From a bacterium (lineage in GTDB: Bacteria > Bacteroidota > Ignavibacteria > UBA10030): a DNA stretch of 53,613 nt. The position numbers were made by a program, and so were the translations under genes. The first letter of the stretch is position 1. Each line of letters begins with the position of its first letter. Below, piece by piece: positions 1,152-41,561 of this stretch. The notes beneath the pieces are model-generated. The model was not told where the DNA came from. It did not search any database and saw only the letters and a program-made list of their open reading frames with translations. The stretch lies in the NCBI GenBank assembly GCA_007280275.1, contig QYQB01000076.1, forward strand, positions 1 through 53,613, in the 5' to 3' direction.

Positions 1152-3308
1152 TCAACCCCCGTTGGCCTGCATCCAGTCTCGCACCAATTTGTGATACGTC
1201 TGCTCCGGCGTGATCAGGAAGGACAGGTCCGCAGGCACATCAGCCATATCCGGTCTGTCAGGCCAGGTGTTGAGAAACTTCGCCATGACATAGCCCGGAG
1301 GTGGACCGTAGAAGCGGGTCTTGCCGTAGGCGGTCTTCAGATTCTCCCATGTCTTGTTGAAGTACTCAAGAGAAGCTCTGACGTTCTTCATGCCACTCTT
1401 TTGCTGCGCCTTGTCAGCGACATCGCATTGTTGCAGTGCCAATAACAGCTTTGCGGCAGCAATTTGAAAGTCATTGGTTACCGCAAGAATCTCGAAATGA
1501 TAGCGGTTCCTTCTGGCCTTCTTTGACAGTTCCGCTATCTGCGCGGAGGTTACTTCAAATCGTTTGATCTCCTGCCCCGCGACCTTGAGCCTTTCGGCAT
1601 TCTGCTTTGACCACGCCCCGGGCGAGCCTAGATTCGGGACTGCAAGGATGTTTCGCTCTCTTTCTGGTGGCGAAGACATTTCTCTGCTTCCCTTTGTGAA
1701 AAAGCACCAATCCCAGAACTCAGACGCTCTGAAAAGCTCAGCATAGAGGCCTGTAGCTCCGGTGCATTCGGGGCCAAACTCTCTCTGCCAGAACGCCTCC
1801 TCATACTCCGGTTGGCTTCTTCCGAATGGCGACCAGCCGTACTCTGCTGAGGCAATTAATCCTCTCCAGTATGTTTCCATGTGCGGTGATGCATCATCCC
1901 AGGCCGAGCAAAGATGCTTGTCAATTCCTTTATCGATAGCAAGTTGAATGAAACTTTTAATCGTCTGGACCCTGTCGTCATAGAATTCCGTCGTGTGTAC
2001 TTTCGGCGTGACGCAAGCCCTTGGATACAAAGGCGATAAATCGGCGGCAGCGGTGCAGATCATGACATTGAGTCCGCTTTGTTTATACCAATCAAGAGCC
2101 ATGATATTACCGGGCTGCATCGCCATCGAGTAATCCCATCGCATATAGAATGCATCCTTGGGAAATTTACTGGCATTCGCATCCAGCTCCGACCGGCCTT
2201 TTGCCCATGCCTTGTCTGCAACTTCCTTCGTAGCCGCCGGATCATGGACAGACTCATAGAGATTCGAATGCTCGAATATCATATCATCCCAAAAAATGGC
2301 TGTGCGTCCATGCTGACGTGCAAACTCGTTCACTTTGTTGAACCAGTACAGATTGAGCCCCAACATTCCTTCTTTATCAACGAACGCCTTGCAACGCGGA
2401 CATTTCCCGATCGCCCCCGTCTCGTCTCCGCCAAAGTGCAGGTACCTGCTCCCCGGTGTAGCCTCGATGGCATCCTTGCACATGTCGAAGATCACCTGAT
2501 ACGTGCTATCGTTCGTTGGACAAAATACCCAAGCGCTTTTCGGATCTTCCCGAAGATTCGCATACTGAGGATGCTTCAGAAGATAAGCCATATGACCAAG
2601 ACTTTGGACCAGAGGGGTTATTTCGATGTGTCGATCCCTTGCATAGTTGGTCAGCGCTGCCATCTCTTCAATGCTCATCGCAAGTGGCGATCCGATCAAC
2701 GGCTGCCTGCGGAACTGAAGTTTGTCCTCGAATTCAAAGATGACGCCGTTAATCTTGTATCGCGCCAGCCGGTCGATGCTTTTGTAATAGTACTCCATGT
2801 TGTCGAGGTGATGTCTCACATCGAATTGAACTGACCGATAGCTCATCGCGGGATAATCTGTGATCTTGCATGCCGGGATGGTCACCCCGAGATCGCGTGC
2901 GTCTTCAAGGAGCTGCTCGAGTGTCTGGCAGCCATAGAAAAGTCCGGCTTCGCCCCTGGAAGTTATTGCGACCTTCCCGCCAGCAATGAGCAGAACATAT
3001 CCCTCCGGCGACTTGGGAACATCAGCACTCTCAACCAGCTGAAGCCTCAGCACTCCAACGCCTTTGCCAATCTGTGGAAGTGCGGAGAGCATCGGTCCGG
3101 TGGCAGGCAGGGGGAAATCTCCTTTCAGCTCAATCGATTTCAAATCCCCAAGGTTCAATCCTGTCCCCCCAAGCAGTTCCACCCCTTGCGGCTGCGGAAG
3201 AATCTTGAAAGGAGCCGGAAGCTGTTGGCCCCCCGCCAGCAGTAGTGCTGAGTTAACGAGCATAGCCACGACTAGTGTCACAAGACCGATCCATTTCAAA
3301 TTGGTCAT
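1152..3308 (-). CDS. GH20 beta-N-acetylhexosaminidase, exported
   Basis: Has a GH20b-type N-domain (GYVLLIAGGKVAITSRGEAGLFYGCQTLEQLL), then ITDYPAMSYRSVQFDVRHH and the catalytic YLHFGGDE (HxGGDE) motif. N-terminal signal peptide present. The track start at 3323 is TTG. The ATG at 3308 is preceded by AAGGAGG plus 5 nt, so it was chosen. Confidence 0.9.
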   Translation of the reverse strand: MTNLKWIGLVTLVVAMLVNSALLLAGGQQLPAPFKILPQPQGVELLGGTGLNLGDLKSIELKGDFPLPATGPMLSALPQIGKGVGVLRLQLVESADVPKSPEGYVLLIAGGKVAITSRGEAGLFYGCQTLEQLLEDARDLGVTIPACKITDYPAMSYRSVQFDVRHHLDNMEYYYKSIDRLARYKINGVIFEFEDKLQFRRQPLIGSPLAMSIEEMAALTNYARDRHIEITPLVQSLGHMAYLLKHPQYANLREDPKSAWVFCPTNDSTYQVIFDMCKDAIEATPGSRYLHFGGDETGAIGKCPRCKAFVDKEGMLGLNLYWFNKVNEFARQHGRTAIFWDDMIFEHSNLYESVHDPAATKEVADKAWAKGRSELDANASKFPKDAFYMRWDYSMAMQPGNIMALDWYKQSGLNVMICTAAADLSPLYPRACVTPKVHTTEFYDDRVQTIKSFIQLAIDKGIDKHLCSAWDDASPHMETYWRGLIASAEYGWSPFGRSQPEYEEAFWQREFGPECTGATGLYAELFRASEFWDWCFFTKGSREMSSPPERERNILAVPNLGSPGAWSKQNAERLKVAGQEIKRFEVTSAQIAELSKKARRNRYHFEILAVTNDFQIAAAKLLLALQQCDVADKAQQKSGMKNVRASLEYFNKTWENLKTAYGKTRFYGPPPGYVMAKFLNTWPDRPDMADVPADLSFLITPEQTYHKLVRDWMQANGG

Positions 3309-3368
3309 TGAAACCTCCTTCAATCCTATTGAATTCTGAGTGTAGCGGTATCCACAATCAAGGCAACT

Positions 3369-4427: not shown

Positions 4428-5723
4428 CTATTTGCTATCAAGGGGAGAAAACACAAAGACCTCGCATTCGTGCGGTCTTAACTTTGCTGAGATTGTACCG
4501 TTCGCTTTTTCCACAAATTTGTGTTTCCAAACATCATAGATTTTATACTTAGCATCTACCTTCAGTTCCAATTCCTTCCAAGAGGCAGAAATAGATTGTT
4601 CGGTCGAGTTCCGATTTAGTAATGCGATGGCCACTTTCTTATTTGCCAGAGGTTTTTTCCACGCTTCGAATCCATCTTTTTTGATTACACGGAAGCCCTG
4701 TTTTCCCAATGAATCTTGATCGATATCGATGATATCTTTGTTTGACAAGATCATTTTTGTCATTTCATCCATCTTGCTAATATCACATCCTATCATTAAC
4801 GGCGCGGCGATCATACACCACATACTCATTTGCGATCGATATTCAATTTCAGTGCAACCGCCTCCTTTGATATTGCCGGTGTTCTTCAGGCCTACGACAA
4901 GCATATCAGGATCATTCCAACCACCGGGTCCGGCGAAACGATCGAGATTTGATGCCACATCCAGCGACGTGACAACTCCGACCGGGCTTCCTACGTTACG
5001 TGCTACCTCCCACACATCATACACATCATAGGATGTACGCCACATATGACCGCCAACTTCTTTGCCCCATAACCATGGCGAACGCGGACCCCATTCACAA
5101 ATACTATAGATGATCGGTCTTCCTGTTGCCTTAAGAGCATCTCCCATTCTTTTGTAGCGATCAATTGCCATCTTGTAATCATTATTGGCTGATGTATAAT
5201 CTGGACAGAAGCAATAATCGTATTTCAGGAAATCAACACCCCATGCTGCGAACAACGTCGCATCCTTCTTTTCAAAACCATAGCTGCCCGGCATCTTTCC
5301 GCACGTCATCGTACCCGCATCTGAATAAATGCCAAACTTCAGTCCCTTACTATGGACGTAATCTGCTAATGCTTTAATACCGGATGGGAATCTCTTGGGA
5401 TCGGGGAATAAATTCCCATTCGCGTCTCTGCCGCCATGCCAATAATCATCAATCACGACATACGTGTAGCCAACATCTTTCAAACCCGTACTTACCATGA
5501 AGTCTGCAGTCGCGCGAATTGCTTTCTCATCGACATTGATCCCGAACGAGTTCCAACTATTCCATCCCATTGGAGGAGTGAGGGCGAGTTGTTGTTGGAC
5601 CGGTGTCCCTTTGTCCTGCTGTCCGGAGTCTTTTGCATCCGTCTTGTTCTCCCAGCCTACGCTGGCAACAGCCAATGTGAGAACTGAAGTCCAGACTATT
5701 ACATGCTTATTGTACCTTGTCAT
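4428..5723 (-). CDS. GH27 alpha-galactosidase / alpha-N-acetylgalactosaminidase, exported
   Basis: LALTPPMGWNSWNSFG...YVVIDDYWHG...FPSGIKALADYVHSKGLKFGIYSDAGTMTCG...WGVDFLKYDYC is near-textbook GH27. Signal peptide present. AGGAGG lies 7 nt before the ATG. Confidence 0.9.
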   Translation of the reverse strand: MTRYNKHVIVWTSVLTLAVASVGWENKTDAKDSGQQDKGTPVQQQLALTPPMGWNSWNSFGINVDEKAIRATADFMVSTGLKDVGYTYVVIDDYWHGGRDANGNLFPDPKRFPSGIKALADYVHSKGLKFGIYSDAGTMTCGKMPGSYGFEKKDATLFAAWGVDFLKYDYCFCPDYTSANNDYKMAIDRYKRMGDALKATGRPIIYSICEWGPRSPWLWGKEVGGHMWRTSYDVYDVWEVARNVGSPVGVVTSLDVASNLDRFAGPGGWNDPDMLVVGLKNTGNIKGGGCTEIEYRSQMSMWCMIAAPLMIGCDISKMDEMTKMILSNKDIIDIDQDSLGKQGFRVIKKDGFEAWKKPLANKKVAIALLNRNSTEQSISASWKELELKVDAKYKIYDVWKHKFVEKANGTISAKLRPHECEVFVFSPLDSK

Positions 5724-5750: not shown

Positions 5751-7760
5751 CTACTTGGTATTAATCTCAATTCGGTGTGTCCCGAGTCCAGCCGGAATAT
5801 TCAGTACTTGTTTTGAATCTAATACCATTCTTGCCTTTTTCCCGTCAATGCGAACGGTCGCTCCCTCTCCAAACTTCTCCCTGGTACCATCGGACAGTTC
5901 CAGCGTCCACAGGGAGGGTTTCTTTTCGAAATACTTGCAGTAATGGTCATCATATTGAAACTCGATCCCCAGGGTGCTCCTCTTCATCTCCTTGACATTA
6001 CTGTGCAGATACGCGCAAGTCTCATTAAAGCCCATCCAGTGTTTGTCCTTGTGGGCATCGATCCAGTTGGTGTTATCTGTCAGGTTGGCCCTTCGCCCTC
6101 CGGCGATCTTCGATGCCATCAACTCCTCTGTGGTCATCTTCAGAAGAGCATCCCAGCCTTCTTCAGTTGCATCTGCCGGATTGTTCGTTCTTGCCGTCAG
6201 GTCCAGATCATGGCAGGTAAACTGCTCGGGCATCATCATACTGAATTCGATGGTCCTGTCGAAGCCCACGTAACATTCCCGACTGACACCCAATCCTGCG
6301 ATTGCAGCCACGCGACCATTATCGTTCCCACCCGGCTTCGACGGACTTATCTCTGCGCCTGTGCGAACTTCTGCGGAAAGGGAAACGACACCAAACGCCT
6401 TTCGAATGGCATCGATACCGCTCTTGTAGAGAAACAGCAGATCGTTCGACGGTACCGACACACCACCGCGCCGCACGTCAACGATCTCGTTATACCAATT
6501 TGTCACGGCCATTTCGCCGTCGATCGGACTCCCCCACCACGGCCCCGGCTCCGAATCCAGGTCCCAGTTCATGTGCGACCAGGCACGGTGCGGTTGAATC
6601 TCAAAGACGCCGCGCCGAAGTCCTTCATCAAGTCCGGCCTTTGTAGAACCGTAATCTTGCCAGTTACCGAAGATATCTTTGAATGGTTTGACCGACCACG
6701 GCGACTCGATGATCTTGTTTTTCGGATTCGCGAAACCGGGCGTAATATTCTGAACCATCATGAGCCCGCGCTTCTCGAGCGGCTCTATCAGGTATTTCAT
6801 CAGAGTTTCTTTGCTCGGCGTCGGATAGTGCCACCTCAGGCTCCATGCATGTTCGCTGCAACCGATATCGTCCATGATGAAAATGAATCCGTTGTCGAAG
6901 TTATCATTGAAGATGCCGTACCCGATCGCATACACCAACGACTTCCTAAAGACCCTCCTCATCACCGGATACGTACGAAACCAGTTCTTCCCTCCGCCGA
7001 TCCAAATTACTTTCGTGTCGCTGGTTACGTCCCTTACAGTCAGTTGAGGAGTCTGACCAACCTGGCCAAGCACTTTTGTCGCATCGCCTGCCGTGCAACG
7101 AATAACAGAGATCTTGGATTTCTCCTCGATGACTTCTCCCGGTTTTAGAGTGACACCGTTGCCTCCCACGATGCTTGGTGCCGCTGACAACTTCTCGTCC
7201 GGCAGCACTGTTCCCACGGCTCCAGACGTAATGAAATGCTTGCCCGAGATCGTGAACCCATCTGTCTTTCTACCTTGCCGCAAATCCACAACCCCCTCGT
7301 ACTTCACACCAATTAAATCAGCCACCTGTGTAGTCTTGATATTGTCAAAGAGGGCGATCAAGCTTATTCCATACTCTTCGACGACTCGTTTGAGTGTCTG
7401 GTAGTTCGCGGAAAACCCCTGGAGCTTGTCCGGGTCCGCCATCCATATCACGCAGCCATAGTTGGGCTTTGCCTCACCGTCCAGAAAACGGTTTATCTGG
7501 AGCCGCTGCTCATCTAGGCGCAAAATGTCGAATGGAACCCCCCAGATCTTGAGCATCGTCACGACATCGATAAACTCCCCTCCCTTGACACGCTTCGAGT
7601 CGATGTTGTAGCTAAGCGGATCAGTCCACTGGTCACCGATGACGACGAGAACGCGGAAGGGTTTGACTGCCGGTGGTTGTTTGTTGCCGGCGAGTGCGAC
7701 GACAGCAAATGCCAACAGAACGAAACTCAAAATGAAAATTCGTTGCTTGGCTGTATTCAC
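5751..7760 (-). CDS. Secreted protein of unknown function (669 aa)
   Basis: Long ORF co-oriented with its neighbours, GTG start, clear signal peptide (NTAKQRIFILSFVLLAFAVVALAG). The N-terminal FRVLVVIGDQW... segment resembles a flavodoxin/GATase1-like fold. I recognise no catalytic motif. Confidence 0.7.
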   Translation of the reverse strand: MNTAKQRIFILSFVLLAFAVVALAGNKQPPAVKPFRVLVVIGDQWTDPLSYNIDSKRVKGGEFIDVVTMLKIWGVPFDILRLDEQRLQINRFLDGEAKPNYGCVIWMADPDKLQGFSANYQTLKRVVEEYGISLIALFDNIKTTQVADLIGVKYEGVVDLRQGRKTDGFTISGKHFITSGAVGTVLPDEKLSAAPSIVGGNGVTLKPGEVIEEKSKISVIRCTAGDATKVLGQVGQTPQLTVRDVTSDTKVIWIGGGKNWFRTYPVMRRVFRKSLVYAIGYGIFNDNFDNGFIFIMDDIGCSEHAWSLRWHYPTPSKETLMKYLIEPLEKRGLMMVQNITPGFANPKNKIIESPWSVKPFKDIFGNWQDYGSTKAGLDEGLRRGVFEIQPHRAWSHMNWDLDSEPGPWWGSPIDGEMAVTNWYNEIVDVRRGGVSVPSNDLLFLYKSGIDAIRKAFGVVSLSAEVRTGAEISPSKPGGNDNGRVAAIAGLGVSRECYVGFDRTIEFSMMMPEQFTCHDLDLTARTNNPADATEEGWDALLKMTTEELMASKIAGGRRANLTDNTNWIDAHKDKHWMGFNETCAYLHSNVKEMKRSTLGIEFQYDDHYCKYFEKKPSLWTLELSDGTREKFGEGATVRIDGKKARMVLDSKQVLNIPAGLGTHRIEINTK

Positions 7761-7800: not shown

Positions 7801-8910
7801 TCATATCTTCAGAAAAGTCTTCTTGCTGTACATCCAATACAGGATAAGCCAGATCACCGTGAGCGCCGCTGCCTCCTGGACAAATTCATTCCAGGGACCC
7901 AGCCACGGAGCAAGTCCCCCGACGAACACATTTCCAATATGTTTGAAGTCGAAAAGGTGAGTCGCAACGTAGACGCCAATGGCATTCATGCCGATCACAA
8001 CAAAAAAGAACGCCCATTTTCTGTACCCCCACACATCGATGACAAGATAGAAGAGGGCCAGGAGCAGGTAGCTCCATCCGGCGGCGTACAACACGAGAGA
8101 ACTGGTCCACAGGTGATGAATGATCGGGAACCAGATGCCCCAGATCAGGCCGGCGACTACGCAGCCGATCCCGAGTAGTGCCAATTCACCCGCTTTCCGC
8201 ATTTGCGCGCGCTTCGAAAGCAGGATCTGACCCGCGAAGACCCCAAGCATCACAGAGCAGATAAATGTCATGTTTGTGATGATGTACGTCCAGCCTTCCC
8301 CTTCCTGCCAGTGGCCGAGGACGGCATTGTCGACGTAGAGAGCCAGGTTCGTGTTCCGCTCAAAGAAGCCAGCCCCAATCCCCGGAATGGGAACCAACGC
8401 CATCACCGCCCAGTACAGCAACAGGAGGATTGCTGTTACAGCCACCTGCCATCGAAACTTTAACTCAAGGATCATGACGGAACTAACAAGATACCCCACA
8501 GCGATGGCATGTAACGTATCTGTCCACAGATGTAGCTTTGTCGAATCAAATTTCAGTAAGTGACCGGAGGCAATCAGTCCGAGGATGTAGAGGATGACCA
8601 CTCTTCTCAAGACGTGAAGATAGAGTTTCTTCTTGGTATCGCCGTGATCAAGCCGCTTGACAAACGAAAAGGGCATGACAGCCCCTACAATGAAAAGGAA
8701 CAGGGGCATGATCAAATCATAGAAATGAAACCGCCCCCATGAGTGTTCAAAATTCACGTCCATCCCCTGGAGAAAACCAATGCCAGAATTCTTGGCAAGG
8801 GAAACAAGGACCTGGGCACCTCCGATGATCCAAAGCATGTCAAAGCCTCTGAGGGCATCGACGCACATCAGTCTTTGACTGGCAACCGGTGATTGAGTTT
8901 GGGAATCCAT
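7801..8910 (-). CDS. HGSNAT-like (DUF5009/DUF1624) polytopic membrane acyltransferase, copy 1
   Basis: 369 aa, multi-TM. N-terminal RLMCVDALRGFDMLWIIG and FEHSWGRFHFYDLIMPLFLFIVG match the heparan-alpha-glucosaminide N-acetyltransferase catalytic-domain family signature. Confidence 0.75.
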   Translation of the reverse strand: MDSQTQSPVASQRLMCVDALRGFDMLWIIGGAQVLVSLAKNSGIGFLQGMDVNFEHSWGRFHFYDLIMPLFLFIVGAVMPFSFVKRLDHGDTKKKLYLHVLRRVVILYILGLIASGHLLKFDSTKLHLWTDTLHAIAVGYLVSSVMILELKFRWQVAVTAILLLLYWAVMALVPIPGIGAGFFERNTNLALYVDNAVLGHWQEGEGWTYIITNMTFICSVMLGVFAGQILLSKRAQMRKAGELALLGIGCVVAGLIWGIWFPIIHHLWTSSLVLYAAGWSYLLLALFYLVIDVWGYRKWAFFFVVIGMNAIGVYVATHLFDFKHIGNVFVGGLAPWLGPWNEFVQEAAALTVIWLILYWMYSKKTFLKI

Positions 8911-8950
8911 CGTGCTTCCCTTGTTGAATAAGTTGCAGCGGAGAAGAAGA

Positions 8951-10753
8951 TTATTTCACGCTGTCGATCAATATGAAATCGTACTCCTTCAGCATGTTTT
9001 TATATGGGGCTTTGTATGTGACGGTTTCCTCGGATTTCAAGTTGTGCTTGTTGTCCCAGACGACGACATGAATCTTTGAACCATCGGCGAGACCCGGGAT
9101 TGAGACTTCAAGCTCAGTCGTTTCGATTGCGAGGAGTGCTGTCACATTCTTTCCGACAATGCCCCAGACATTTGAGGATGGAGGTATTCCACCGCCTGAA
9201 AGCAGATTGGAGATCGGATAGGCGACCTCCCAGTTTAACGCAGTCGCTGTAACGAGATACTTCTTGTCTTTGCCGACGATGTACGGTCCCCGACCATATG
9301 TTTTGTTCGGCTCGCAGTAGATGGTTCCACTGATTGCGTCCTTTGGAATGACGGTGCCCGCACGCAAATCCCCGCCGTGCTGTACATCCGAGCCGGTGAA
9401 TCTCAAGTACACATTCCCATAATATCCGGTGTATGGAAGCTGAGCCTCCTGGTTCTTTGGAAGAGAGACGTCAGCTTCACCGTCTTCCCCGCCGCCAAAC
9501 CGAAACGACTTCGTCCCGTCAACACCGCACTTTTCCAAAGCCGTCTTCCAACTTGGACTTACACTTGATCCACCCGGGATGCTGCTGCCGCATTGAACGA
9601 AGACGGGCTTATCGCCACTGAACAGTGCCACAACGTCGTCGGGCAGGACGTCGCCGCTGCCGCCCGAGGCATAAATCCAATACGCATCGGCGGGCACTAC
9701 TTTGTCACTCACAATGATGTTGTAGCCGGCATTCAGCGCGCCGGAAGTAATGGCATCGCCGGAGTTGAACAGGCGGCTCCATCCGGGATCGACCGCCTGA
9801 CTGCCGGACGATTTGCTCCATTGCTTCAGGAGAACCACAATGTTCATTACGGGTCTGTCTTTTTCCTGCTTGTTAACATATTCCGTGATCCAGGCCTGTG
9901 TCTTGATGGGGTCGAACAGATTCATCCCTCCCCAGATCATGAAATTGTCCACCCTGAACTGCAGAGCGCGAATCATGCAAATGTCAGCGACCACTGCTGG
10001 AGAGTACTCGCCCGGAATGCCCCAGTTGCGAGTCAAGGGCGAAATCAAGGATGTAGGCTTCTTCCAGTATTTTGCCCAACCAAAACCGAGCGTACCGTGC
10101 TCGGCCAGCGTGGCTATGTTGAATATCTTGTCACGTTTGAGATAATAATTGTAGATATCGATGGTGCCTGTCTCGGGCCAGAGTGGGACGAAATGAGGCT
10201 CCTTGAGCAGCATCGGATCAGTGCCGGAGACATAATCGACGCCTCTCTTTTTGAGTTCTCTCGCCAGTGACACAAAGACATCCGGCTTCACTTCGAAGCA
10301 CTCTTCGAATACACCATCCGCCCCGCAGTTTGCAATGTCATCAGCGACCTCCTTGATATTCTCCGGAGTCCACTGATTTTGTTTCCAGTGCCACGGATTA
10401 ACCCCCTCTATATTGATCGATACCTTAAGTCCTTTCTTGTGTGCAGCCTTCGCAACCGGAGTGAGCATATCCCATTTGAACACTCCCCACTTCTGTTTTT
10501 CGAGAAAGGGAGATTTGAAATAGTAGTGCATCTCCGGCCCGACGCGATCAGCACCCCACATTTCGAGACCTCGCCAGCCTTTCGCATACGCATCATCCAT
10601 CAGCGCTGACAACCGAGCGTCGGTCCCCTGGTCCACCGCCTGCCGATGGTCGATGATCCCTTCAACCCAGTAGCGAGGGCTGTACTGTTCCTGTGCGACA
10701 ACGATTGATACAAACTGAAGCACCACATAGAGTCTAAGCACTTTCTTGAACAT
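8951..10753 (-). CDS. Secreted protein of unknown function (600 aa), possibly a TIM-barrel glycosidase-like protein
   Basis: Signal peptide MFKKVLRLYVVLQFVSIVVAQ, with GGGAGG 6 nt before the ATG. The alternating beta/alpha-like N-terminal half (GLKVSINIEG..., GADGVFEECFEV) suggests a barrel, but no family is recognised. Confidence 0.7.
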   Translation of the reverse strand: MFKKVLRLYVVLQFVSIVVAQEQYSPRYWVEGIIDHRQAVDQGTDARLSALMDDAYAKGWRGLEMWGADRVGPEMHYYFKSPFLEKQKWGVFKWDMLTPVAKAAHKKGLKVSINIEGVNPWHWKQNQWTPENIKEVADDIANCGADGVFEECFEVKPDVFVSLARELKKRGVDYVSGTDPMLLKEPHFVPLWPETGTIDIYNYYLKRDKIFNIATLAEHGTLGFGWAKYWKKPTSLISPLTRNWGIPGEYSPAVVADICMIRALQFRVDNFMIWGGMNLFDPIKTQAWITEYVNKQEKDRPVMNIVVLLKQWSKSSGSQAVDPGWSRLFNSGDAITSGALNAGYNIIVSDKVVPADAYWIYASGGSGDVLPDDVVALFSGDKPVFVQCGSSIPGGSSVSPSWKTALEKCGVDGTKSFRFGGGEDGEADVSLPKNQEAQLPYTGYYGNVYLRFTGSDVQHGGDLRAGTVIPKDAISGTIYCEPNKTYGRGPYIVGKDKKYLVTATALNWEVAYPISNLLSGGGIPPSSNVWGIVGKNVTALLAIETTELEVSIPGLADGSKIHVVVWDNKHNLKSEETVTYKAPYKNMLKEYDFILIDSVK

Positions 10754-10845
10754 CTTATACCTCCCGGATTGAACCCGAAAATCAGGCGATTGCCGTATTC
10801 ACCCTATTTATCTTTTCTTGGCGGTTTGATTCTACGACGAGAGCG

Positions 10846-11787
10846 TTAGCGTGCGTACTTTTGGACACAGTGCGCATAATGATCTGTCACGTAGATGCTT
10901 CCATCGGCTCCAACTGCTATCCCTATCGGGAAATGCTTACTGTCGTCCAGGACTCCCGGTGTCATCCAATGCTCTTTGTATTCCCCGCTAGCGGTCAACA
11001 ATTGAATCCGGAAGTTGTACCGATCACACACGTAAACGTCTCCTTTGGAGTCAACCGCGACACCGTGCGGCTCGCTGAATTGTCCCCCCTTTGCTTCCTT
11101 TCCTTCTCCATATTGTCCGAATCGCTTCACCAATGCCCCTTCCTTCGAAAAGATGGAGATACGATGGTTTTGTCTGTCGCTCAGGATGATGTTCCCGTCT
11201 CTGCCTATCGCTATCTCATGCGGCATATAGGCTTTGAAACCAATACTTTCTTCCGAGCCCCATTTTGCCAGGAACTTCAGATCTGAATCGAATGTCTGGA
11301 TTCTGTAATTGAATGCATCAATCACATAGAGAACGTCCTTCTCATCGACGGCGATGCCGTAGGGGTATTTGAATTGCCCGTCTTGCGTTCCGTAGGAACC
11401 AATTGACGCCAAATACTCGCCTCTTGGAGAGAACTTCTGGACTCGATTGTTGTTCATATCGGCCACATAGACGAAGCCTTTCGAATCGATCGCTATGCCG
11501 TACGGGTACGTGAATTCCCCGGGTCCCTTGCCCAATCTGCCCCACATGAGAATGAAGTTCCCTTCCGCATCGAATTTCTGGATCCGTTGATTGTGTTGGT
11601 CCACCACGTAGACATTCGAGGATTTGTCCACAGCAATCATCGTCGGGTATTTCAGCTGCCCTGGTTTGTCCCCAAACTCTCCCCACTGCTTGGTCATGCC
11701 CTGACCGGACTGAGCGTTCACTATCGGCGTGATGCCGCAGATAAGTACTGCAGCAAAAATCACCTTGATAAGCTGACTATTCTTCAT
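10846..11787 (-). CDS. NHL-repeat beta-propeller protein, exported
   Basis: Six repeats of the type YPxGIAVDxxGxVYVxDxxNxRIQKF. The track start at 11811 is GTG. The ATG at 11787 (MKNSQLIKVIFAAVLICG...) follows AAGAGGAAA and was preferred. Confidence 0.85.
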   Translation of the reverse strand: MKNSQLIKVIFAAVLICGITPIVNAQSGQGMTKQWGEFGDKPGQLKYPTMIAVDKSSNVYVVDQHNQRIQKFDAEGNFILMWGRLGKGPGEFTYPYGIAIDSKGFVYVADMNNNRVQKFSPRGEYLASIGSYGTQDGQFKYPYGIAVDEKDVLYVIDAFNYRIQTFDSDLKFLAKWGSEESIGFKAYMPHEIAIGRDGNIILSDRQNHRISIFSKEGALVKRFGQYGEGKEAKGGQFSEPHGVAVDSKGDVYVCDRYNFRIQLLTASGEYKEHWMTPGVLDDSKHFPIGIAVGADGSIYVTDHYAHCVQKYAR

Positions 11788-11830
11788 GGTTCGTTTCCTC
11801 TTTACAGTCACGAGTTAAGAAACGCTGCGA

Positions 11831-12736
11831 TTACTTTTTCGTGTTATCGAGCACTGTGATAAACTTCTCGAAATCCTGGTCATACCCATCGCTCCGGGAC
11901 ATAAAGCCTTTTTCTATGTCGCCGCCATTCTGACTTCTGTGCTTATTCCACGCTTCATATTTTATTGTACGATATTTTCTAATGTCCATTCGAACGTCGG
12001 CCCTTCCTCTTCCACTCTCCTGCGCTTCGGTGTCTGACAGCCAGCCATGGGGCAGCGTCCACAATTTCCCAACTGCCATACCTTGTGCAATCGCCTTTTT
12101 GAACGCCAAGTACATCAAATATCCGCTATCTCCGTGATCGAGCTTTTCTCCGCCCGGCGTGTGAATGATCGTGATCTCGGATTGATATTTCTTCAGCAAT
12201 GCGACGACGAAATTCACATCTTCGCTATATCTTGTGGCAAGGCTTACATGTTTTCTGCCTGGCGGATCATATTTCAGATACTCTTCCGTACCATAAATGA
12301 CCAATTTGCGGCCAAGCCATAGTTCTGGCTCACAAAAATCGAGGAAGACCGGCTCGGCGCCAAACACCTTAGCTGCCTGCAAAGCTTCCTCTCTTCTGAT
12401 CTGCATTGTTTCCAGTGCATCCACCTGGTACACCTTCGGGGACCCTGTTACAGCAGCGGTCAACTTCCTGCCCGCAAAATCCCAGTTACCCGGCACCTTT
12501 TCAATCTGATTGCCCGAGAGGTTATTCATGACGCAAACGTAAATGCCTTGATAGCCCTCCGCGATATATTTGGCAAAGGTTCCGCCGGCCATTTGTTCAA
12601 CATCATCGGCATGAGCCCCGAACACCAGAATGCATTTTCGAGGTTTGTTTCCGTCGCCGGCAATAATGAAAGTCGCAGGGACAAGGAATGCCAAGATCGA
12701 GTACTTCAGAAACCTCAGGAATGTGCCTGGCTTCAT
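11831..12736 (-). CDS. LmbE/PIG-L-family deacetylase with N-terminal signal/anchor, paralog 1
   Basis: Hydrophobic leader, then KPRKCILVFGAHADDVEQMAGGT (AHPDD-type zinc motif) and LDHGDSGYLMYLAF. It is one of three tandem paralogs. Confidence 0.8.
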   Translation of the reverse strand: MKPGTFLRFLKYSILAFLVPATFIIAGDGNKPRKCILVFGAHADDVEQMAGGTFAKYIAEGYQGIYVCVMNNLSGNQIEKVPGNWDFAGRKLTAAVTGSPKVYQVDALETMQIRREEALQAAKVFGAEPVFLDFCEPELWLGRKLVIYGTEEYLKYDPPGRKHVSLATRYSEDVNFVVALLKKYQSEITIIHTPGGEKLDHGDSGYLMYLAFKKAIAQGMAVGKLWTLPHGWLSDTEAQESGRGRADVRMDIRKYRTIKYEAWNKHRSQNGGDIEKGFMSRSDGYDQDFEKFITVLDNTKK

Positions 12737-12802
12737 CTCACAACTCCAATCACGTAGTCAGTAAACACTTGTTGACCCCAGCGCCCGAATTGCACGACAA
12801 CA

Positions 12803-13699
12803 TCATTTTGTGTTATCGAGGACTGTGATGTACTCTTCGACCATACCTTCGGGTGTCACCTGGCCTCTTTCTACATAGTCTTTGTAGAAGATGCTTTTTT
12901 GGCTGACGTGTCTACAGTATGCTTCATACTTGATCTTCAGATAGTTTTTGATATCGATGCTGACGTCGGGCTTTCCTCTGCCACTTTTCCGTGCCTCAGG
13001 ATCCAGCAACCACCCGCCCACATCCATCCAGAGCTTCCCGACTGGTATTCCTTGCGCAATTGCCTTTGTGAATGCCAAATACATGAGATATGCGCTGTTT
13101 CCGTGCTCATCTTTGTCACCACCCAAGGCATGGATAATAACAATCTCAGGTTGATACTTCTTCAGCAGGTCGACAACAATGCCCACTTCCTTGCTCATGG
13201 TCGAAGCCACACTGATTTGTGGTCCTCCGGGAGGTTGGTATTGATGGAACTCATCGGAGCCGATATAGCATTCCTTGCGTCCCTGCCAAATGAATATTTC
13301 ACGATAACCAAGGAATACGGGCGTTGCGCCATACAACGCCGCTGCATTTCTGGCCTCCTCCTGCCGAATCTGGATCGTCTCGAGTGCATCCACCGGGTAG
13401 AGATGAGGCGAGTTTGAAACGGTAAACCTCGTGCCCCTGCCGTACCGGGGATTCTGAGTATTCTGAATCGTGCATCCCGCTGTGTTGTTGTTGACGACGA
13501 CGTAAATTCCTTCATACCCAGATCCGATGTATTTGGCGAACGTGCCTCCGGCCACCGCTTCGACATCATCTGCATGAGCGCCGAATACGAGTATACATTT
13601 CCTGGGTTTCTCTTTGTCCCCTGCAAGTACAATGCTTGCGGAAAGGAGCAGGAAGAGCACAGAACATTCCAGAATTCTGAAATTCGTCTTCGCTTTCAC
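12803..13699 (-). CDS. LmbE/PIG-L-family deacetylase with N-terminal signal/anchor, paralog 2
   Basis: KPRKCILVFGAHADDVEAVAGGT and DEHGNSAYLMYLAF. GTG start preceded by AAGGAG plus 7 nt. Confidence 0.8.
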   Translation of the reverse strand: MKAKTNFRILECSVLFLLLSASIVLAGDKEKPRKCILVFGAHADDVEAVAGGTFAKYIGSGYEGIYVVVNNNTAGCTIQNTQNPRYGRGTRFTVSNSPHLYPVDALETIQIRQEEARNAAALYGATPVFLGYREIFIWQGRKECYIGSDEFHQYQPPGGPQISVASTMSKEVGIVVDLLKKYQPEIVIIHALGGDKDEHGNSAYLMYLAFTKAIAQGIPVGKLWMDVGGWLLDPEARKSGRGKPDVSIDIKNYLKIKYEAYCRHVSQKSIFYKDYVERGQVTPEGMVEEYITVLDNTK

Positions 13700-13745
13700 T
13701 CTAGGACTCCTTGTCTCGACAACCCTCTCGTACTTCCGAATGGCG

Positions 13746-14702
13746 CTAGTGAGTATTGTCTATGACCGTGATGAATTCTTCGATTGTTTCTTTTGCCTGT
13801 GCCTTATTCTTTGCCACATAGTTCTTCCCAAAGCCACCGTTCTGACTCAGGTGTTTATTCAGAGCCTCGTATTTCGTCTTTAGATACTTTTTCACATCGA
13901 TGTGAACATCCGGCTTTCCTCTTCCGGTTTTCTGCGCCGTATCATCCAGGAACCATCCATCAACTTTCATCCACAACTTCCCCACTGCAATACCTTTGCT
14001 CATCGCCTTCTTGAATGCCAGATACATCAGATAGGCACTGTTGCCGTGATCAAGCTTTTCACCACCCAACGTGTGAATGATGATGATCTCCGGTTGGTAC
14101 TTTTGCAGCAGTTCCACTACAATGTTGATATCCTCGCCATATCTAGTGGCAAGACTAACATCGTGTTTGGCCTGAGGGCTGTACTTCAAGAACTCTTCCG
14201 AGCCATACACAACGATTTTGCGGCCCAGCAGAATCTCAGGTTCACTGAAATTCAGAAAGACCGGCACTGCACCATACACAGCTGCCGCTTGCCTGCATTC
14301 TTCCTCACGAATTTGATTCGTTTCCAGAGCATCGACTGGATACATTTGGGGCGAACTGGAAACCGAGAACTTTGGACCCCATTTGTCGCCGGGCGCCTTC
14401 TCGATATTGCAGCCGGCAGTATTATTCGTGACACAGACATAGATGCCTTGATAGCCCTGAGCTGTGTACCTGGCTAATGTCCCGCCGGCAATCTCATCGA
14501 CATCATCGGCGTGAGCGCCAAAGACCAGGATACATTTCCGGGGTTTATCTTTTGCTCCAGCCATAAGGAAGTCTGATGATACCACGAGTGCGACGACAAG
14601 GAGCACTTGGAAGAGAGGAAATCTATTTGGTCGCATCGGGATTGCCATGTTTAGAATGTTGCACAACATTTCCTGAAGTCCTTCTGAGGAGCCCCGCTTC
14701 AA
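13746..14702 (-). CDS. LmbE/PIG-L-family deacetylase with N-terminal signal/anchor, paralog 3 (start uncertain)
   Basis: KPRKCILVFGAHADDVDEIAGGT and LDHGNSAYLMYLAF. The longest ORF starts at TTG 14702. The internal ATG at 14636 (MRPNRFPLFQVLLVVALVV...) gives a leader of the same length as the paralogs. Confidence 0.75.
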   Translation of the reverse strand: MKRGSSEGLQEMLCNILNMAIPMRPNRFPLFQVLLVVALVVSSDFLMAGAKDKPRKCILVFGAHADDVDEIAGGTLARYTAQGYQGIYVCVTNNTAGCNIEKAPGDKWGPKFSVSSSPQMYPVDALETNQIREEECRQAAAVYGAVPVFLNFSEPEILLGRKIVVYGSEEFLKYSPQAKHDVSLATRYGEDINIVVELLQKYQPEIIIIHTLGGEKLDHGNSAYLMYLAFKKAMSKGIAVGKLWMKVDGWFLDDTAQKTGRGKPDVHIDVKKYLKTKYEALNKHLSQNGGFGKNYVAKNKAQAKETIEEFITVIDNTH

Positions 14703-14742
14703 CGGGTCGTGCTCCTCAACAGAAAACCCTCGCGCTATACGG

Positions 14743-15843
14743 TTATATCTTGATCAAGATCTTGTTCTTATAGAGCCAGTAACACATATACCAAAGCAGA
14801 AACCATGCTGCGAAGGCCGTGGCATACGGCAGAAGTACTGGCGACCAGAAGAACAGGGCATAGGTAAACGGTTTCGCTATCTTAATCAGAAGAGAAGCGC
14901 CACCAAACTGATCGAACAGATAGATGAACAGGCAATTCATACCGACGATTGCAAAGAACTTCGGGACTTTTTGAATCTTCTTCAGATCCACCATCCAATA
15001 GGAGAATGCAAGAGCCACCAAACACCATCCACCGGTTTCGATGACATAGGAAGATGTGGCAATTCTCTTGACGATCGGTGTAATGGGATCGAGAGCGAAG
15101 CCGAGGGCGATGCCGATGAGCCCTGCGATGATGAGAATCTTCAACTTCTGGTTGGACGTCCTCTCGCTCCGCAGGATCAACCCCGCGACAACTCCCCAGA
15201 TCGTAAATGCCGCCGTGGGAACAGCGTTAAAGGCCACCCAATACCCCTTCTCAGTCATCCCCATCAGCTGTAGATCAACCCAGGTCCCAAAATTCTGTGC
15301 TGGCACAAATGCCTGGTTGAATCCTTCGACAGGCCAGAAACGATAGAGCAATTCGCTCAGCAGGAGGAATCCAAAGCTAACAGCCACCTGAACCTTAATC
15401 GGCTTTCTCATCAACAAAAACGCAACGATGTAGGTAAATCCCAGTTGAGTGAGGACATTCCAGAGTTTCCAGACCGGCCTGCCTGCGCTGATGCTGTAAT
15501 AAATGATGCCGAGCATGAAGAGCCAGGCCGAACGCTCAACGGCGTGCAAGAGTATCTTCTTCCAGGGATCTCCTCTTTCCAGCCGTTTCAATGCCGAAAA
15601 CGGGATCGCAACGCCGACAATGAACATGAAGAAGGGCTCGACGAAATCCCAGAAGGTCAACCCATTCCATGGATGGTGCTCAAACTGAAACCCGATGAAT
15701 GAGAGGATGCCGTTATCGGAAGCTTGCAGAAGGCGATACAGGCCTGACGACTTACCGATGAGAAGAAGCATTGTCAACCCTCGGAAGAAATCGAGCGAGA
15801 GGAGACGCTGCGCACTTGCTTGAGGCGAGATGTCCTGGGTCAT
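14743..15843 (-). CDS. HGSNAT-like (DUF5009/DUF1624) polytopic membrane acyltransferase, copy 2
   Basis: RLLSLDFFRGLTMLLLIG and FEHHPWNGLTFWDFVEPFFMFIVG, multi-TM. The ATG at 15843 follows AAGGGA plus 7 nt and sits 1 nt after the upstream TGA, so it was preferred over the ATG at 15861. Confidence 0.75.
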   Translation of the reverse strand: MTQDISPQASAQRLLSLDFFRGLTMLLLIGKSSGLYRLLQASDNGILSFIGFQFEHHPWNGLTFWDFVEPFFMFIVGVAIPFSALKRLERGDPWKKILLHAVERSAWLFMLGIIYYSISAGRPVWKLWNVLTQLGFTYIVAFLLMRKPIKVQVAVSFGFLLLSELLYRFWPVEGFNQAFVPAQNFGTWVDLQLMGMTEKGYWVAFNAVPTAAFTIWGVVAGLILRSERTSNQKLKILIIAGLIGIALGFALDPITPIVKRIATSSYVIETGGWCLVALAFSYWMVDLKKIQKVPKFFAIVGMNCLFIYLFDQFGGASLLIKIAKPFTYALFFWSPVLLPYATAFAAWFLLWYMCYWLYKNKILIKI

Positions 15844-15844
15844 T

Positions 15845-16861
15845 TCATTTTCCCTTTTCATTCAAATCGATAGTGATTTCCGCCTGTTCACTCCCCTGGT
15901 GTGTAACAAGTATGCGGTTCTCAGTGAACTGGAACAATCGCCAATTCAGAGACCCCTCGGCCACCGAACCCGTTTCAATCTGATAAACCGTCTGGCCGGC
16001 CGGGAATCTGATCCCTTCAAAAATGTTCGAATGCCCATGGCCGACAACCATTGCTTTGATGTTCGGATTCTCGTTCACGAGCTTTAACAGCCCATCCGAA
16101 CATTGCTTCGCGGTGGGCCAATCCAACAGACCGTGTTCCTTGAAGCAGATGCCATCTCCGTTGATGTCCCCAACCGAAAAATAGATATGAAAGAACAAGA
16201 TGACCGGCTCGCGCCCGGCGCTCGACAGTAGTTCCTTGAGCCAGTCAAACTGAACCTTGTCGATGACCCTTCCTTCGTCGTGCAGGCTGTAGCCGTTGTC
16301 AAGAAAGATGAAATGATAGTTGGTCCTGCCAACCCGAAAGATCCTGGAATAATAGGTGCCATCATGAAAACACGGGATGTTTCTTATCCAACTTGCACGC
16401 GCCCGGTCGGCAGAGGTCTGGGATTCAACGATCGTTGAGTCAGTATCATGAACGACATACTTCGTAAGGTCGTGATTGCCCAGCGTCAGATACAGTGGAA
16501 CCGGACACTGATCATTCACTGTTCTCAATTGTTCAATCTGATTCGCCAACAGCTTGTGGGATTTTGTTTCCCCCTCATACATGTCGAGCACATCTCCGGT
16601 GATTACAACAGCATCGGCTTTCACTTGTCTGGGAACCGATCTGAAAAACTCGGTCAGCGAATCGAGTCCGCTTCTGACAACGAAATGCCTGACCGGGAGC
16701 AACGGATGACATTCATCCTGGTTATACAGCAGATGGAGATCACTTGTATGAAGGACGTTCAGCGTGTCGACAGCTTGACCACGTGCTCCGTATGCAATCA
16801 GCACTGTGAACAGTGTCAAAGAGAACGCAATTTTGTAACGGCTCATCGAGATTCGTGACAT
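15845..16861 (-). CDS. Calcineurin-like metallophosphoesterase, exported
   Basis: Motifs LHTSDLHLL, VVITGDVLD, LGNHD and VVGHGH. Signal peptide present. Confidence 0.8.
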   Translation of the reverse strand: MSRISMSRYKIAFSLTLFTVLIAYGARGQAVDTLNVLHTSDLHLLYNQDECHPLLPVRHFVVRSGLDSLTEFFRSVPRQVKADAVVITGDVLDMYEGETKSHKLLANQIEQLRTVNDQCPVPLYLTLGNHDLTKYVVHDTDSTIVESQTSADRARASWIRNIPCFHDGTYYSRIFRVGRTNYHFIFLDNGYSLHDEGRVIDKVQFDWLKELLSSAGREPVILFFHIYFSVGDINGDGICFKEHGLLDWPTAKQCSDGLLKLVNENPNIKAMVVGHGHSNIFEGIRFPAGQTVYQIETGSVAEGSLNWRLFQFTENRILVTHQGSEQAEITIDLNEKGK

Positions 16862-19318: not shown

Positions 19319-19375
19319 TTCGTCTTCGATCCTCAGTAATTGTGATCGTTGTCTGCAGGTCTGCAAGACCTGATG

Positions 19376-20986: not shown

Positions 20987-21054
20987 TCAAGATTCTTGAT
21001 TAGAAATTCAACGATTGAATTCGAATTTAGCTAAGTCTGACTTCTTCTCAACTC

Positions 21055-22671: not shown

Positions 22672-22724
22672 AGCATCCCTCGATTTCCGCCGGAAGGTCC
22701 TCGTTCATGAGGCCACCGACGATT

Positions 22725-26529: not shown

Positions 26530-26533
26530 GGAA

Positions 26534-26992: not shown

Positions 26993-27044
26993 AGGATTCC
27001 CTGCTGAATATTTCCCACTCGACGATTGATCTAAAGCCAGACGG

Positions 27045-32389: not shown

Positions 32390-32407
32390 AACATCCTCTC
32401 CTCGATA

Positions 32408-33586: not shown

Positions 33587-33649
33587 CGCTCTGTTCTTGA
33601 TCTCACCCTCCCTTGACCTGCAACCGTTGTCTATTCACTTGTGAGAGGC

Positions 33650-38515: not shown

Positions 38516-38587
38516 TGTTTCCCTTTCCAAATGATTGTTCTATGCCGCTTCAGTATAGTGACGCGTTCTCGAAACAACAGCCACGTG

Positions 38588-40790: not shown

Positions 40791-41561
40791 CTAGACTCTG
40801 AAAACAAGGCTGCCCAATTCCCGCTCCAGGATGTTGTCTTGTGGGAACGCGTGCCCCAGGTGCTGACGGAACCCCTCACCGAACGCAACGCCGACTTCTT
40901 TCCCCCGTTTGGCCGAGAGCTGCTTCAACGAAGAATTGATATAGTCATCAACTTCGTGATGTGCCTGCAGCCAGCTTTGCTGGCTGGCGTGGCACCTGAA
41001 CATCTTTTCCTTCAAAGTCATCTTGCTGCTTATGTTCACAATCGTGGAAGCCTTGACCGCATCGCCGAGTATATCCTTCCCCTCAATAGGATCGACGTAG
41101 TAAAGGGCAGGGATCTTCAGGAACGGCCCGGTCCCCTCCGTTTCGATGTTCTTGATCCCGGCAGAAAAGCATGCAGTGCGGACCACTGCGCTCGTCATTT
41201 CGTGGTCGACCATATAGTCCTGCGGACTCATCGTCATCACGATTCCCGGTCGGACCTCCCTGATCAACCGGATAACCTTCAACAACGTAGGGCGGTCGTA
41301 CGTCACGAAGATGTCGTCGCACTCCATGCAATGGTACTTGCCATCCAGTATTTTCGCAGAGGCCGCGGCCTCTCCCTTACGGATTGTGCTGATCTCTGCT
41401 CTCGGGAGGCTCGTGGAGCCGCAATCCCCCGGGGTCATGGTAGCGAATTCGATCCGCCAGTCTTGTTCGTGCAGCAAGGCCAGGGTCCCGGCGCACAGGA
41501 TCTCGATGTCATCAGGATGCGCACCAATTGCCAAAACAGTTTTGGATTGTTCTATACCCAC
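40791..41561 (-). CDS. PIG-L/LmbE-family deacetylase, leaderless (cytoplasmic type)
   Basis: Canonical VLAIGAHPDDIEILCAGTL motif at the very N-terminus. 256 aa, GTG start. Confidence 0.8.
   Translation of the reverse strand: MGIEQSKTVLAIGAHPDDIEILCAGTLALLHEQDWRIEFATMTPGDCGSTSLPRAEISTIRKGEAAASAKILDGKYHCMECDDIFVTYDRPTLLKVIRLIREVRPGIVMTMSPQDYMVDHEMTSAVVRTACFSAGIKNIETEGTGPFLKIPALYYVDPIEGKDILGDAVKASTIVNISSKMTLKEKMFRCHASQQSWLQAHHEVDDYINSSLKQLSAKRGKEVGVAFGEGFRQHLGHAFPQDNILERELGSLVFRV

Follow-up and report, generated by a model that had tools for sequence, protein, structure and literature searches.

Predicted exported LmbE/PIG-L proteins and HGSNAT/NagX-like membrane proteins share a conserved gene neighborhood across bacterial phyla

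Described deacetylases and transmembrane acetyltransferases

Contig QYQB01000076.1 of an Ignavibacteria genome (GCA_007280275.1) encodes three tandem LmbE/PIG-L proteins of carbohydrate esterase family 14 (CE14), here PIGL1-3, bracketed by two membrane proteins, NagX1 and NagX2, of the HGSNAT/NagX/DUF5009 type. We analyzed the whole contig (53,613 nucleotides; hereafter the window). The original prediction, made from the sequence alone, read this arrangement as a module that removes and restores N-acetyl groups outside the cytoplasm, and called the pairing unfamiliar as a bacterial pathway. The components themselves are already known, both CE14/LmbE and HGSNAT/NagX/DUF5009 (the TmAT superfamily), as is the idea of NagX as a bacterial HGSNAT analogue. 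In the literature we found no description of an exported CE14 clade, of its conserved coupling to NagX-type genes or of the partners NHL, unk600 and unk669 introduced below, and nothing on LmbE/PIG-L combined with HGSNAT or polysaccharide utilization. The unfamiliarity of the pairing therefore stands, but a role for NagX (PMC9007349) and a logic joining CE14 to a GH35/GH42-like glycosidase (PMC6566704) had been published.

Bacterial NagX (Shewanella SO_3504; NCBIfam NF046061) resembles NagX1 and NagX2 in several respects. Both window proteins match its hidden Markov model (HMM) over their full length, are of similar size (369 and 372 amino acids, aa) and keep the HGSNAT-type histidine. NagX likewise occurs in a catabolic amino-sugar gene context, and is proposed to move acetyl from cytoplasmic acetyl-coenzyme A (acetyl-CoA) onto a periplasmic amine (PMC9007349); the acetylated sugar then joins the N-acetylglucosamine (GlcNAc) route and loses its acetyl group again (PMC9007349). 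Unlike NagX, the window genes lie outside nagP/nagK/nagA chitin operons, beside exported CE14 proteins, an NHL propeller and glycosidase-like proteins of no family, and two divergent copies (31% identity) occupy one operon.

Human lysosomal HGSNAT, which acts with NAGLU on heparan sulfate, is directly similar in sequence (E ~1e-7 to 1e-8), and its R275, H297, D307 and R345 have equivalents here. The logic is also alike, in that an extracytoplasmic glucosaminide is acetylated so that a glycosidase can proceed. In contrast to HGSNAT, NagX1 and NagX2 lack the luminal beta-sandwich domain and the extra transmembrane helix, HGSNAT N286 has no conserved counterpart in a stretch of uncertain alignment, and the window holds neither a GH89 partner nor any sulfatase.

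For the deacetylases, the nearest catabolic precedent is archaeal. In Thermococcales, the CE14 enzyme Dac makes chitobiose cleavable by GlmA, a GH35/GH42-like exo-beta-glucosaminidase (PMC6566704). The window parallels this in pairing CE14 proteins of proposed catabolic role with a candidate glycosidase that would not depend on the acetamido group: Dac is among the best fold matches of PIGL1, and the model of unk600 is GH164/GH42-like. Archaeal Dac and GlmA are cytoplasmic, whereas PIGL1-3 bear predicted signal peptides; unk600 has no detectable sequence relation to solved structures, and we know of no NagX step in archaea.

PIGL1-3 share with MshB, BshB, BC1534 and eukaryotic PIG-L the fold, the AH(A/P)DD motif, the zinc triad and the general-base aspartate. 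They differ in a predicted cleavable leader, about 60 extra residues in two insertions and a lysine in place of the first histidine of the HPDH motif. To our knowledge, characterized CE14 members all act on the cytoplasmic side. Extracytoplasmic de-N-acetylation of N-acetylhexosamine (HexNAc) glycans is the work of PgaB, IcaB and the Vibrio chitin-oligosaccharide deacetylase, the first two of which are biosynthetic; these are CE4 enzymes, with a NodB fold and a family unrelated to CE14.

The CE14 proteins, their export signals and their neighbors

All sizeable open reading frames (ORFs) in the window lie on the minus strand, and its ~38 genes are mostly glycan-related. In order of transcription, MPE338 is followed by NagX2, PIGL3, PIGL2, PIGL1, NHL, unk600, NagX1, unk669, GH27, EamA and GH20 (Table 1). 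Intergenic distances along this single-strand array run from -17 to 108 nt, the MPE338 stop overlapping the NagX2 start by 17 nt. A pattern scan of the window found no intergenic terminators, with promoter and terminator pattern counts at chance level. The family membership, conserved catalytic residues, export signals, operon-like packing and cross-phylum synteny established here form the ground for the reading that we weigh below.

The three paralogous ORFs at 11831-14702 proved to be what the original prediction took them for. PIGL1-3 all exceed the PF02585 (PIG-L) gathering score of 28.2 bits, as does PIGL4, the leaderless fourth copy that it had also pointed out. Mutual identity among PIGL1-3 is 53-59% (E 1e-107 to 1e-128), PIGL2 being 53% identical to PIGL1 and 58% to PIGL3. 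They share KPRKCILVFGAHADDV..AGGT, followed by KLDHGDS, KDEHGNS or KLDHGNS. The ORF of PIGL3 probably begins too early, its true start being Met19 at 14648, as suggested by a database homolog (P0060) that begins MAIPMRP. PIGL3 is also the paralog closest to the copies in single-copy loci elsewhere, giving the best tblastn label in most of them.

The predicted metal site is intact. A 16-sequence alignment shows H42, D44, D45 and H201 (PIGL1 numbering) to be conserved, and a profile alignment places H201 on the BC1534 zinc ligand H113. From the zinc ligands of BC1534 and MshB, we take H42, D45 and H201 to bind zinc in PIGL1 and D44 to be the general base. An AlphaFold2 (AF2) model of PIGL1 has a mean confidence score (pLDDT) of 70, with a core above 85 and two low-confidence insertions, and its top 42 Foldseek matches in the PDB all have the LmbE fold (BC1534, GalB, Dac, BshB, MshB, TT1542 and teicoplanin deacetylases). 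By homology, PIGL1-3 would be N-deacetylases or amidases acting on amino-sugar substrates. The exported clade is narrow, with only 12 clusters (50% identity) at E <= 1e-30 among 1.84 billion representatives; large Bacteroidota clades of CE14 remain unassigned (PMC13450560).

PIGL1-3 carry predicted Sec-type signal peptides that would place them outside the cytoplasm. Leaders were called by heuristic sequence analysis of family members. The motif CILVFGAHADD is conserved in 113 of 123 members, and 17-69 residues precede it in all 113. The leader sequences differ across the family while their properties are conserved: the n-region has a net positive charge in 91%, the uncharged hydrophobic core has a median length of 13 residues, less than a membrane anchor usually has, and a small-residue -3/-1 site (AxA/AxG/A|Q) is present in 105 of 109. 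In 44 of the 109, the junction is x|Q, which also occurs on other exported proteins of the window and corresponds to the "Q-rule" of Bacteroidetes signal peptidase I (PMC5837995).

Natural fusions support the same location, because they put the deacetylase domain behind a secreted phosphatase without a leader of its own. In P0400, a signal peptide and purple acid phosphatase run directly into ...KSGSKTKQPRKCILVFGAHADDVE with no second leader, and P0362 has a single leader followed by two PIGL domains; behind another leader, the domain can evidently do without its own. The reality of the leaders, on which the original prediction depended, thus draws on both leader analysis and fusions. Further database fusions, including P0365 and P0368, join purple acid phosphatase to PIGL or PIGL to PIGL; the first PIGL copy of P0368 has lost its His/Asp motif. 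A Bryobacteraceae locus (L039, 9389-10789) encodes a 466-aa form of the deacetylase with ~200 extra N-terminal residues.

The two membrane proteins were identified through NF046061 (NagX_SO_3504), which covers both over their full length, and through human HGSNAT structures (phmmer E = 1.7e-7 for NagX1; 1.5e-8 for NagX2, against 8vkj), bearing out their earlier description as HGSNAT-like. The NCBI name of a protein identical to NagX1 is "DUF5009 domain-containing protein." NagX1 holds RLMCVDALRGFDML and FEHSW, NagX2 RLLSLDFFRGLTML and FEHHPW; the motif first described, FEH(S/H)xW, fits NagX2 but is one residue off in NagX1. NagX2 had been placed at 14743-15843; the protein is real, but 15843 corresponds to Met7 of a longer ORF (14743-15861). 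The superfamily has a polytopic core of ten helices; a crude hydropathy scan gave nine segments in NagX1 and just three over threshold in NagX2.

Equivalents of HGSNAT D272, R275, H297, D307 and R345 do not vary across 24 ORFs of related loci (H56, D65, D18, R21 and R103 in NagX1; H62, D72, D24 and R27 in NagX2), and the NagX2 alignment to 8vkj spans R275, H297, D307 and R345. In HGSNAT, H297 and D307 serve catalysis while R275 and R345 bind the CoA diphosphate (PMC11199644); the DxxR motif of the first helix has also been described (PMC12423673). We infer that NagX1 and NagX2 may carry out acetyl-CoA-dependent N-acetylation. Fitness data from several bacteria support NagX as a periplasmic glucosamine (GlcN) N-acetylase (PMC9007349), and for no DUF5009 protein has a function been confirmed by experiment (PMC12423673).

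The deacetylase genes and their neighbors travel together. When one genome of each species was scanned with the family alignment, 39 loci emerged, which span Bacteroidales, Chitinophagaceae (including the cultured Chitinophaga alhagiae T22), Ignavibacteriaceae, Bryobacteraceae and others. Window proteins were mapped onto them by tblastn, and partners were counted in the 21 loci that reach 15 kb or more. There the exported deacetylase is accompanied most constantly by the NHL propeller (21/21), followed by NagX-like genes (17/21), unk600 and GH20 (15/21 each), GH27 (13/21), a purple-acid-type phosphoesterase (12/21) and GH28 (10/21). The neighborhood of deacetylase, NagX-like gene, GH20 and GH27 is thus conserved across at least three phyla, and the cluster across soil and freshwater Bacteroidota. 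The PIGL-NagX linkage is no local accident. The original prediction had staked itself on such conservation and noted the flanking GH20 and GH27; it missed the tightest partners, namely NHL, the GH164-like unk600 and the purple-acid-type phosphoesterases.

Gene order is conserved as well. A NagX2-type gene adjoins the PIGL array in seven other loci (L004, L005, L006, L014, L021, L026 and L027), four of which (L004, L005, L006 and L021) repeat the order MPE338-NagX2-PIGL. The NagX1-type gene comes after unk600 almost everywhere, and the order unk600-NagX1-(unk669)-GH27 recurs, with unk669 between NagX1 and GH27 in several genomes (synteny in L009, L012, L013, L038, L039 and L044). A search begun from unk600 homologs recovers the same module. 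C. alhagiae has a compact form, SusC-SusD-PIGL-NHL-GH20-unk600-NagX-GH27, whose reading frames overlap or nearly abut and whose SusC/SusD genes (Plug/CarbopepD_reg and SusD matches) lie directly upstream of the orthologs. No SusC/SusD pair was found among the ORFs scanned in the window, and an outer-membrane import component of the locus would lie outside it.

Table 1. Coordinates of the core array, in order of transcription, and of PIGL4
Feature	Position	Strand	Match or remark
MPE338, exported calcineurin-like metallophosphoesterase	15845..16861	-	PF00149 E = 5.9e-16
NagX2, HGSNAT/NagX/DUF5009-type transmembrane acetyltransferase homolog, 372 aa	14743..15861	-	NF046061 E = 4e-38, 131 bits
NagX2 features	RLLSLDFFRG 15778-15807; His62 15676-15678; Asp72 15646-15648	-	
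PIGL3, predicted exported LmbE/PIG-L paralog, ORF 318 aa	13746..14702	-	PF02585 52.4 bits
PIGL3 features	predicted leader 14556-14648; AHADD 14502-14516; KLDH 14046-14057	-	
PIGL2, predicted exported LmbE/PIG-L paralog, 298 aa	12803..13699	-	PF02585 44.9 bits
PIGL2 features	predicted leader 13619-13699; HADD 13565-13576; KDEH 13103-13114	-	
PIGL1, predicted exported LmbE/PIG-L (CE14) Zn-amidohydrolase, 301 aa	11831..12736	-	PF02585 44.9 bits
PIGL1 features	predicted leader 12656-12736; HADD 12602-12613; KLDH 12134-12145	-	
NHL, exported six-bladed beta-propeller, directly downstream of PIGL genes	10846..11811	-	PF01436 E = 3.9e-47
unk600, exported 600-aa protein, directly upstream of NagX1	8951..10753	-	no Pfam/NCBIfam family
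NagX1, HGSNAT/NagX/DUF5009-type, 369 aa	7801..8910	-	NF046061 E = 3.6e-68, 230 bits
NagX1 features	RLMCVDALRG 8845-8874; His56 8743-8745; Asp65 8716-8718; Arg103 8602-8604	-	
unk669, exported 669-aa protein	5751..7760	-	no Pfam/NCBIfam match
GH27, exported, alpha-galactosidase type	4428..5723	-	Melibiase_2 E = 5.7e-71; SICEWG
EamA transporter	3369-4319	-	between GH27 and GH20
GH20 beta-hexosaminidase	1152..3323	-	PF00728 + PF02838; downstream end of co-directional array
PIGL4, leaderless canonical BshB1-like LmbE deacetylase	40791..41561	-	PF02585 84.7 bits; TIGR04001 119 bits, under its cutoff

Weighing a periplasmic pathway

We propose that these genes make up the periplasmic core of a conserved locus for breaking down a glycan with amino sugars and phosphate, a reading to which we give a probability of about one half. 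The enzymatic activities, the glycan and the order of steps that follow are inferred from families, residues and neighborhood. PIGL1-3 would strip the HexNAc residues of periplasmic oligosaccharides of their N-acetyl groups, and possibly of other N-acyl groups. This would leave linkages open to glycosidases for which the acetamido group makes no difference or gets in the way, the candidates being unk600, unk669 and possibly GH27. NagX1 and NagX2 would then pass acetyl from cytoplasmic acetyl-CoA to the free amine of a periplasmic hexosamine (HexN), the acceptor being the sugar once it is released (the NagX proposal) or a terminal residue (the HGSNAT case). Finally, the re-acetylated sugar would be cut by GH20 or imported as HexNAc, with PIGL4 and a set of DegT, GFO, kinase and aldolase proteins acting in the cytoplasm. 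This reading is the most economical in that it joins the Dac/GlmA precedent of Thermococcales with the NagX precedent of bacteria.

If correct, it would add an exported clade to CE14 and mean that bacteria spend cytoplasmic acetyl-CoA on editing glycans outside the cytoplasm during catabolism, a bacterial equivalent of the step that fails in Sanfilippo syndrome type C. The compact six-enzyme polysaccharide utilization locus (PUL) of the cultured C. alhagiae T22 makes the CE14 and DUF5009/HGSNAT-like functions directly testable.

Of the editing module first proposed, the families, residues, export signals and neighborhood hold; a simple HGSNAT/NAGLU-like coupling to the GH27 exo-enzyme is not favored, given the SICEWG motif discussed below. 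A bolder version, which we advance only tentatively and think unlikely as a whole, is a dedicated periplasmic N-acyl editing cycle. Each residue would be toggled to the form that the next glycosidase requires, with unk600, unk669 and NHL as obligate partners, and the module would enable FCB-group bacteria and some Acidobacteriota to break down an amino-sugar glycan bearing phosphate whose degradation has no described pathway. Such a cycle would be the first bacterial coupling of lysosomal HGSNAT logic to the reverse reaction.

Several observations weigh against the proposed pathway. Its main weakness is that a deacetylase and an acetyltransferase in one compartment form a futile cycle unless their substrates differ. 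In addition, the GH20 and GH123 families require a 2-acetamido group, and deacetylation would block both kinds of enzyme in this locus. On the deacetylase side, the first HPDH histidine (His110 in BC1534, His144 in MshB) is replaced by an invariant Lys198 throughout the exported clade, although PIGL4 also lacks it, so the residue is not universal in the LmbE/PIG-L family. The LmbE fold includes the hydratase GalB, one of the Foldseek matches of PIGL1, and basic residues (KPRK) stand immediately after the predicted cleavage site.

On the acetyltransferase side, the 230 bits of NagX1 and 131 bits of NagX2 fall far short of the 480-bit cutoff for NagX equivalogs; the two are homologs from paralogous subfamilies rather than NagX equivalogs, as judged by these scores. 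N286, the asparagine that stabilizes the acetyl carbonyl in HGSNAT, has no conserved counterpart in an alignment that is uncertain here, since the loop differs in length. A Pfam-A search with NagX1 and NagX2 returned no family even at E <= 10, against the PF07786 or PF16401 match that the original prediction looked for; homologs in other genomes have only a "weak" precomputed PF16401 match. The PF16401 seed alignment consists of two sequences (PMC12423673). Lastly, the seventh barrel strand of the unk600 model has no obvious glutamate by eye.

The strongest rival starts from a native free amine. If the glycan were a partly de-N-acetylated exopolysaccharide or wall polymer, the NagX-like enzymes could acetylate its terminal HexN so that GH20 and GH123 cut, while CE14 acted on another amide, for instance by removing unusual N-acyl groups for NagX to replace with acetyl (an "N-acyl swap"), or deacetylated another sugar. 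The futile-cycle problem would disappear, and the prominence of acetamido-dependent enzymes would be accounted for, with GH20 in 15 of 21 long loci and three GH20 and one GH123 in the window. The conserved HGSNAT catalytic dyad is equally at home in this account. CE14 includes Mca, an amidase for a non-acetyl amide, and NCBIfam yields weak Mca matches. On the other hand, we see no sign of HexN or unusual N-acyl groups in the substrate, the sole experimental data on NagX concern free glucosamine, and the PIGL gene adjoining NagX2 in many loci fits sequential action on one substrate equally well. We regard this rival as plausible in outline and still rather doubtful.

Alternatively, the NagX-like proteins could be inner-membrane importers of periplasmic sugars, leaving the deacetylases alone to set the N-acetyl state. 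One of their relatives, Tannerella TfMurT, has been described as a putative N-acetylmuramic acid (MurNAc) transporter, no further sugar permease is evident in the compact C. alhagiae PUL, and the gap in DUF5009 functional data (PMC12423673) leaves room for such a role. However, the invariant residues are those of catalysis and CoA diphosphate binding, and HGSNAT itself does not transport its substrate (PMC11199644). The NagX fitness data also speak against a pure GlcN transporter, in that NagA, NagP and NagK are required too (PMC9007349). Import thus appears less likely than acetyl transfer on the conserved residues, and we consider it improbable.

The hydrophobic N-termini of PIGL1-3 could instead be anchors, with the catalytic domain remaining on the cytoplasmic side; the deacetylases would in that case work on sugars after import, and no extracytoplasmic editing would occur. 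Eukaryotic PIG-L is built this way, with an N-terminal transmembrane segment and a cytoplasmic catalytic domain, and the conserved KPRK would supply positive charge on the C-terminal side of the hydrophobic stretch. The leader properties point the other way, with short cores, positive n-regions and near-universal cleavage-type sites, as do fusions where the deacetylase domain comes second, after a secreted phosphatase or a further PIGL domain, with one leader for the whole. Leaderless PIGL4, moreover, already covers the cytoplasm. A cytoplasm-facing anchor is on these grounds very unlikely.

That the PIGL-NagX juxtaposition is incidental deserves hardly any credence: a 53-kb one-strand array of mostly glycan-related genes offers many chance pairings, but the pairing recurs in most long loci across Bacteroidales, Chitinophagaceae, Ignavibacteriaceae and Bryobacteraceae, and in C. 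alhagiae it sits among six tightly packed enzyme genes behind SusC/SusD.

We also considered a biosynthetic or cell-envelope role, given the DegT, GFO and acyltransferase-type genes, and dismissed it: glycosyltransferases and polymerases are absent from the window, eight glycoside hydrolases belonging to known families are present along with unk600, and SusC/SusD stand at the orthologous locus.

Candidate glycans for the proposed catabolic locus include partly deacetylated exopolysaccharides of N-acetylgalactosamine (GalNAc) or GlcNAc (Pel, fungal galactosaminogalactan, poly-N-acetylglucosamine), teichoic-acid-like phosphoglycans, and glycosyl-inositol-phosphoceramides, the last considered because of weak IolC-, IolG- and MshB-like matches. 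In the galactosaminogalactan literature we found no bacterial pathway of this type. A phosphate-bearing glycan is suggested by the overlap of MPE338 with NagX2, by the fusion of a phosphatase to PIGL and by the abundance of secreted phosphoesterases; phosphate esters or diesters may be a major feature of the target, or the locus may also scavenge phosphate.

Partner proteins and the rest of the window

The closest PDB sequences to the NHL propeller are the NHL domains of TRIM71, Thin and PknD. unk600 has 231 homologs, every one named "hypothetical," and is conserved at 64-90% identity. Sequence and profile searches of unk600 against the PDB gave no match; its AF2 model (pLDDT 75) has a GH164 beta-mannosidase as best Foldseek match over the whole length (E = 7e-14, TM ~0.5). 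The model depicts a three-domain, GH164/GH42-like TIM-barrel protein, a candidate new glycoside hydrolase family, and shows a conserved adjacent pair, Glu150-Glu151, on a barrel strand. The same searches gave nothing meaningful for unk669, whose FIFIMDDIG and HRAWSHMNW stretches loosely resemble metal-dependent deacetylase motifs, as an impression only. We flag unk600 and unk669 as two candidate new glycosidase families.

GH27 keeps SICEWG in its orthologs, and its closest PDB entries are alpha-galactosidases. We take SICEWG to be an alpha-galactosidase motif rather than one of alpha-N-acetylgalactosaminidases, and for this reason do not favor an HGSNAT/NAGLU analogy in which acetylation precedes GH27 cleavage. 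GH27 as an alpha-N-acetylgalactosaminidase, the NAGLU analogue, was accordingly dismissed as the simplest reading.

Beyond the core array, the glycan enzymes of the window comprise two further GH20, GH123, GH28, GH88 and a beta-helix protein. Five purple-acid-type phosphoesterases are also present, three with C-terminal sorting domains of the type IX secretion system (T9SS). Counting MPE338, six calcineurin-type phosphoesterases occur in the locus (18014-24350, 39515-40888 and 15845-16861), four of which are tandem purple-acid-phosphatase-like genes. The ORF listed for one, PAP457 (39515-40888), shares 98 nt with PIGL4; some 50 residues at its N-terminus look non-native, and its true start probably lies further downstream.

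A set of leaderless proteins accompanies the core: PIGL4, presumably cytoplasmic, a PseC-like DegT, two GFO oxidoreductases (levoglucosan-dehydrogenase/IolG-like), an IolC-like PfkB, a DeoC/DhnA-type aldolase, all with NCBIfam scores under the cutoffs, and two URO-D/MtaA-like proteins. Parts of this set (37388-41561 and 45757-49223) recur beside the module elsewhere (L004, L009, L013, L021, L023, L038, L042, L044 and L045), typically as DegT-EamA-GFO-PIGL4; PIGL4 is syntenic with DegT, EamA and GFO genes in L004, L009, L021, L023, L038 and L042. The set could be an undescribed cytoplasmic route in which an amino sugar or amino-cyclitol is deacetylated, transaminated and reduced.

The two leaderless URO-D-fold proteins (16927-17955 and 36234-37271) are nearest to MtaA/CmuA corrinoid methyltransferases, are kept in L004, L023 and L045, and may take part in sugar O-demethylation. 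Embedded among glycosidases at 24403-27094 is the large subunit of a molybdopterin hydroxylase, whose leader (RREFIR) is Tat-like, together with a 2Fe-2S subunit (PaoC/xanthine-dehydrogenase-like); the same pair lies beside the module in L006 and may be a periplasmic aldehyde or aldose oxidoreductase. Several T9SS cargo proteins are of no recognized kind, among them four T9SS-sorted proteins with no other recognizable domain (30779-34876 and 52629-53546). Two of these, at 32408-33586 and 33650-34876, resemble each other at the N-terminus (...GQTVLKYYGV...) and are evidently paralogs.

Bacteroidota metagenome-assembled genomes come nearest, at 71-85% amino-acid identity, and together with the T9SS tails they point to an uncultured Bacteroidota member as the source; identical DNA is present in the JGI metagenomes 3300013092 and 3300022553.

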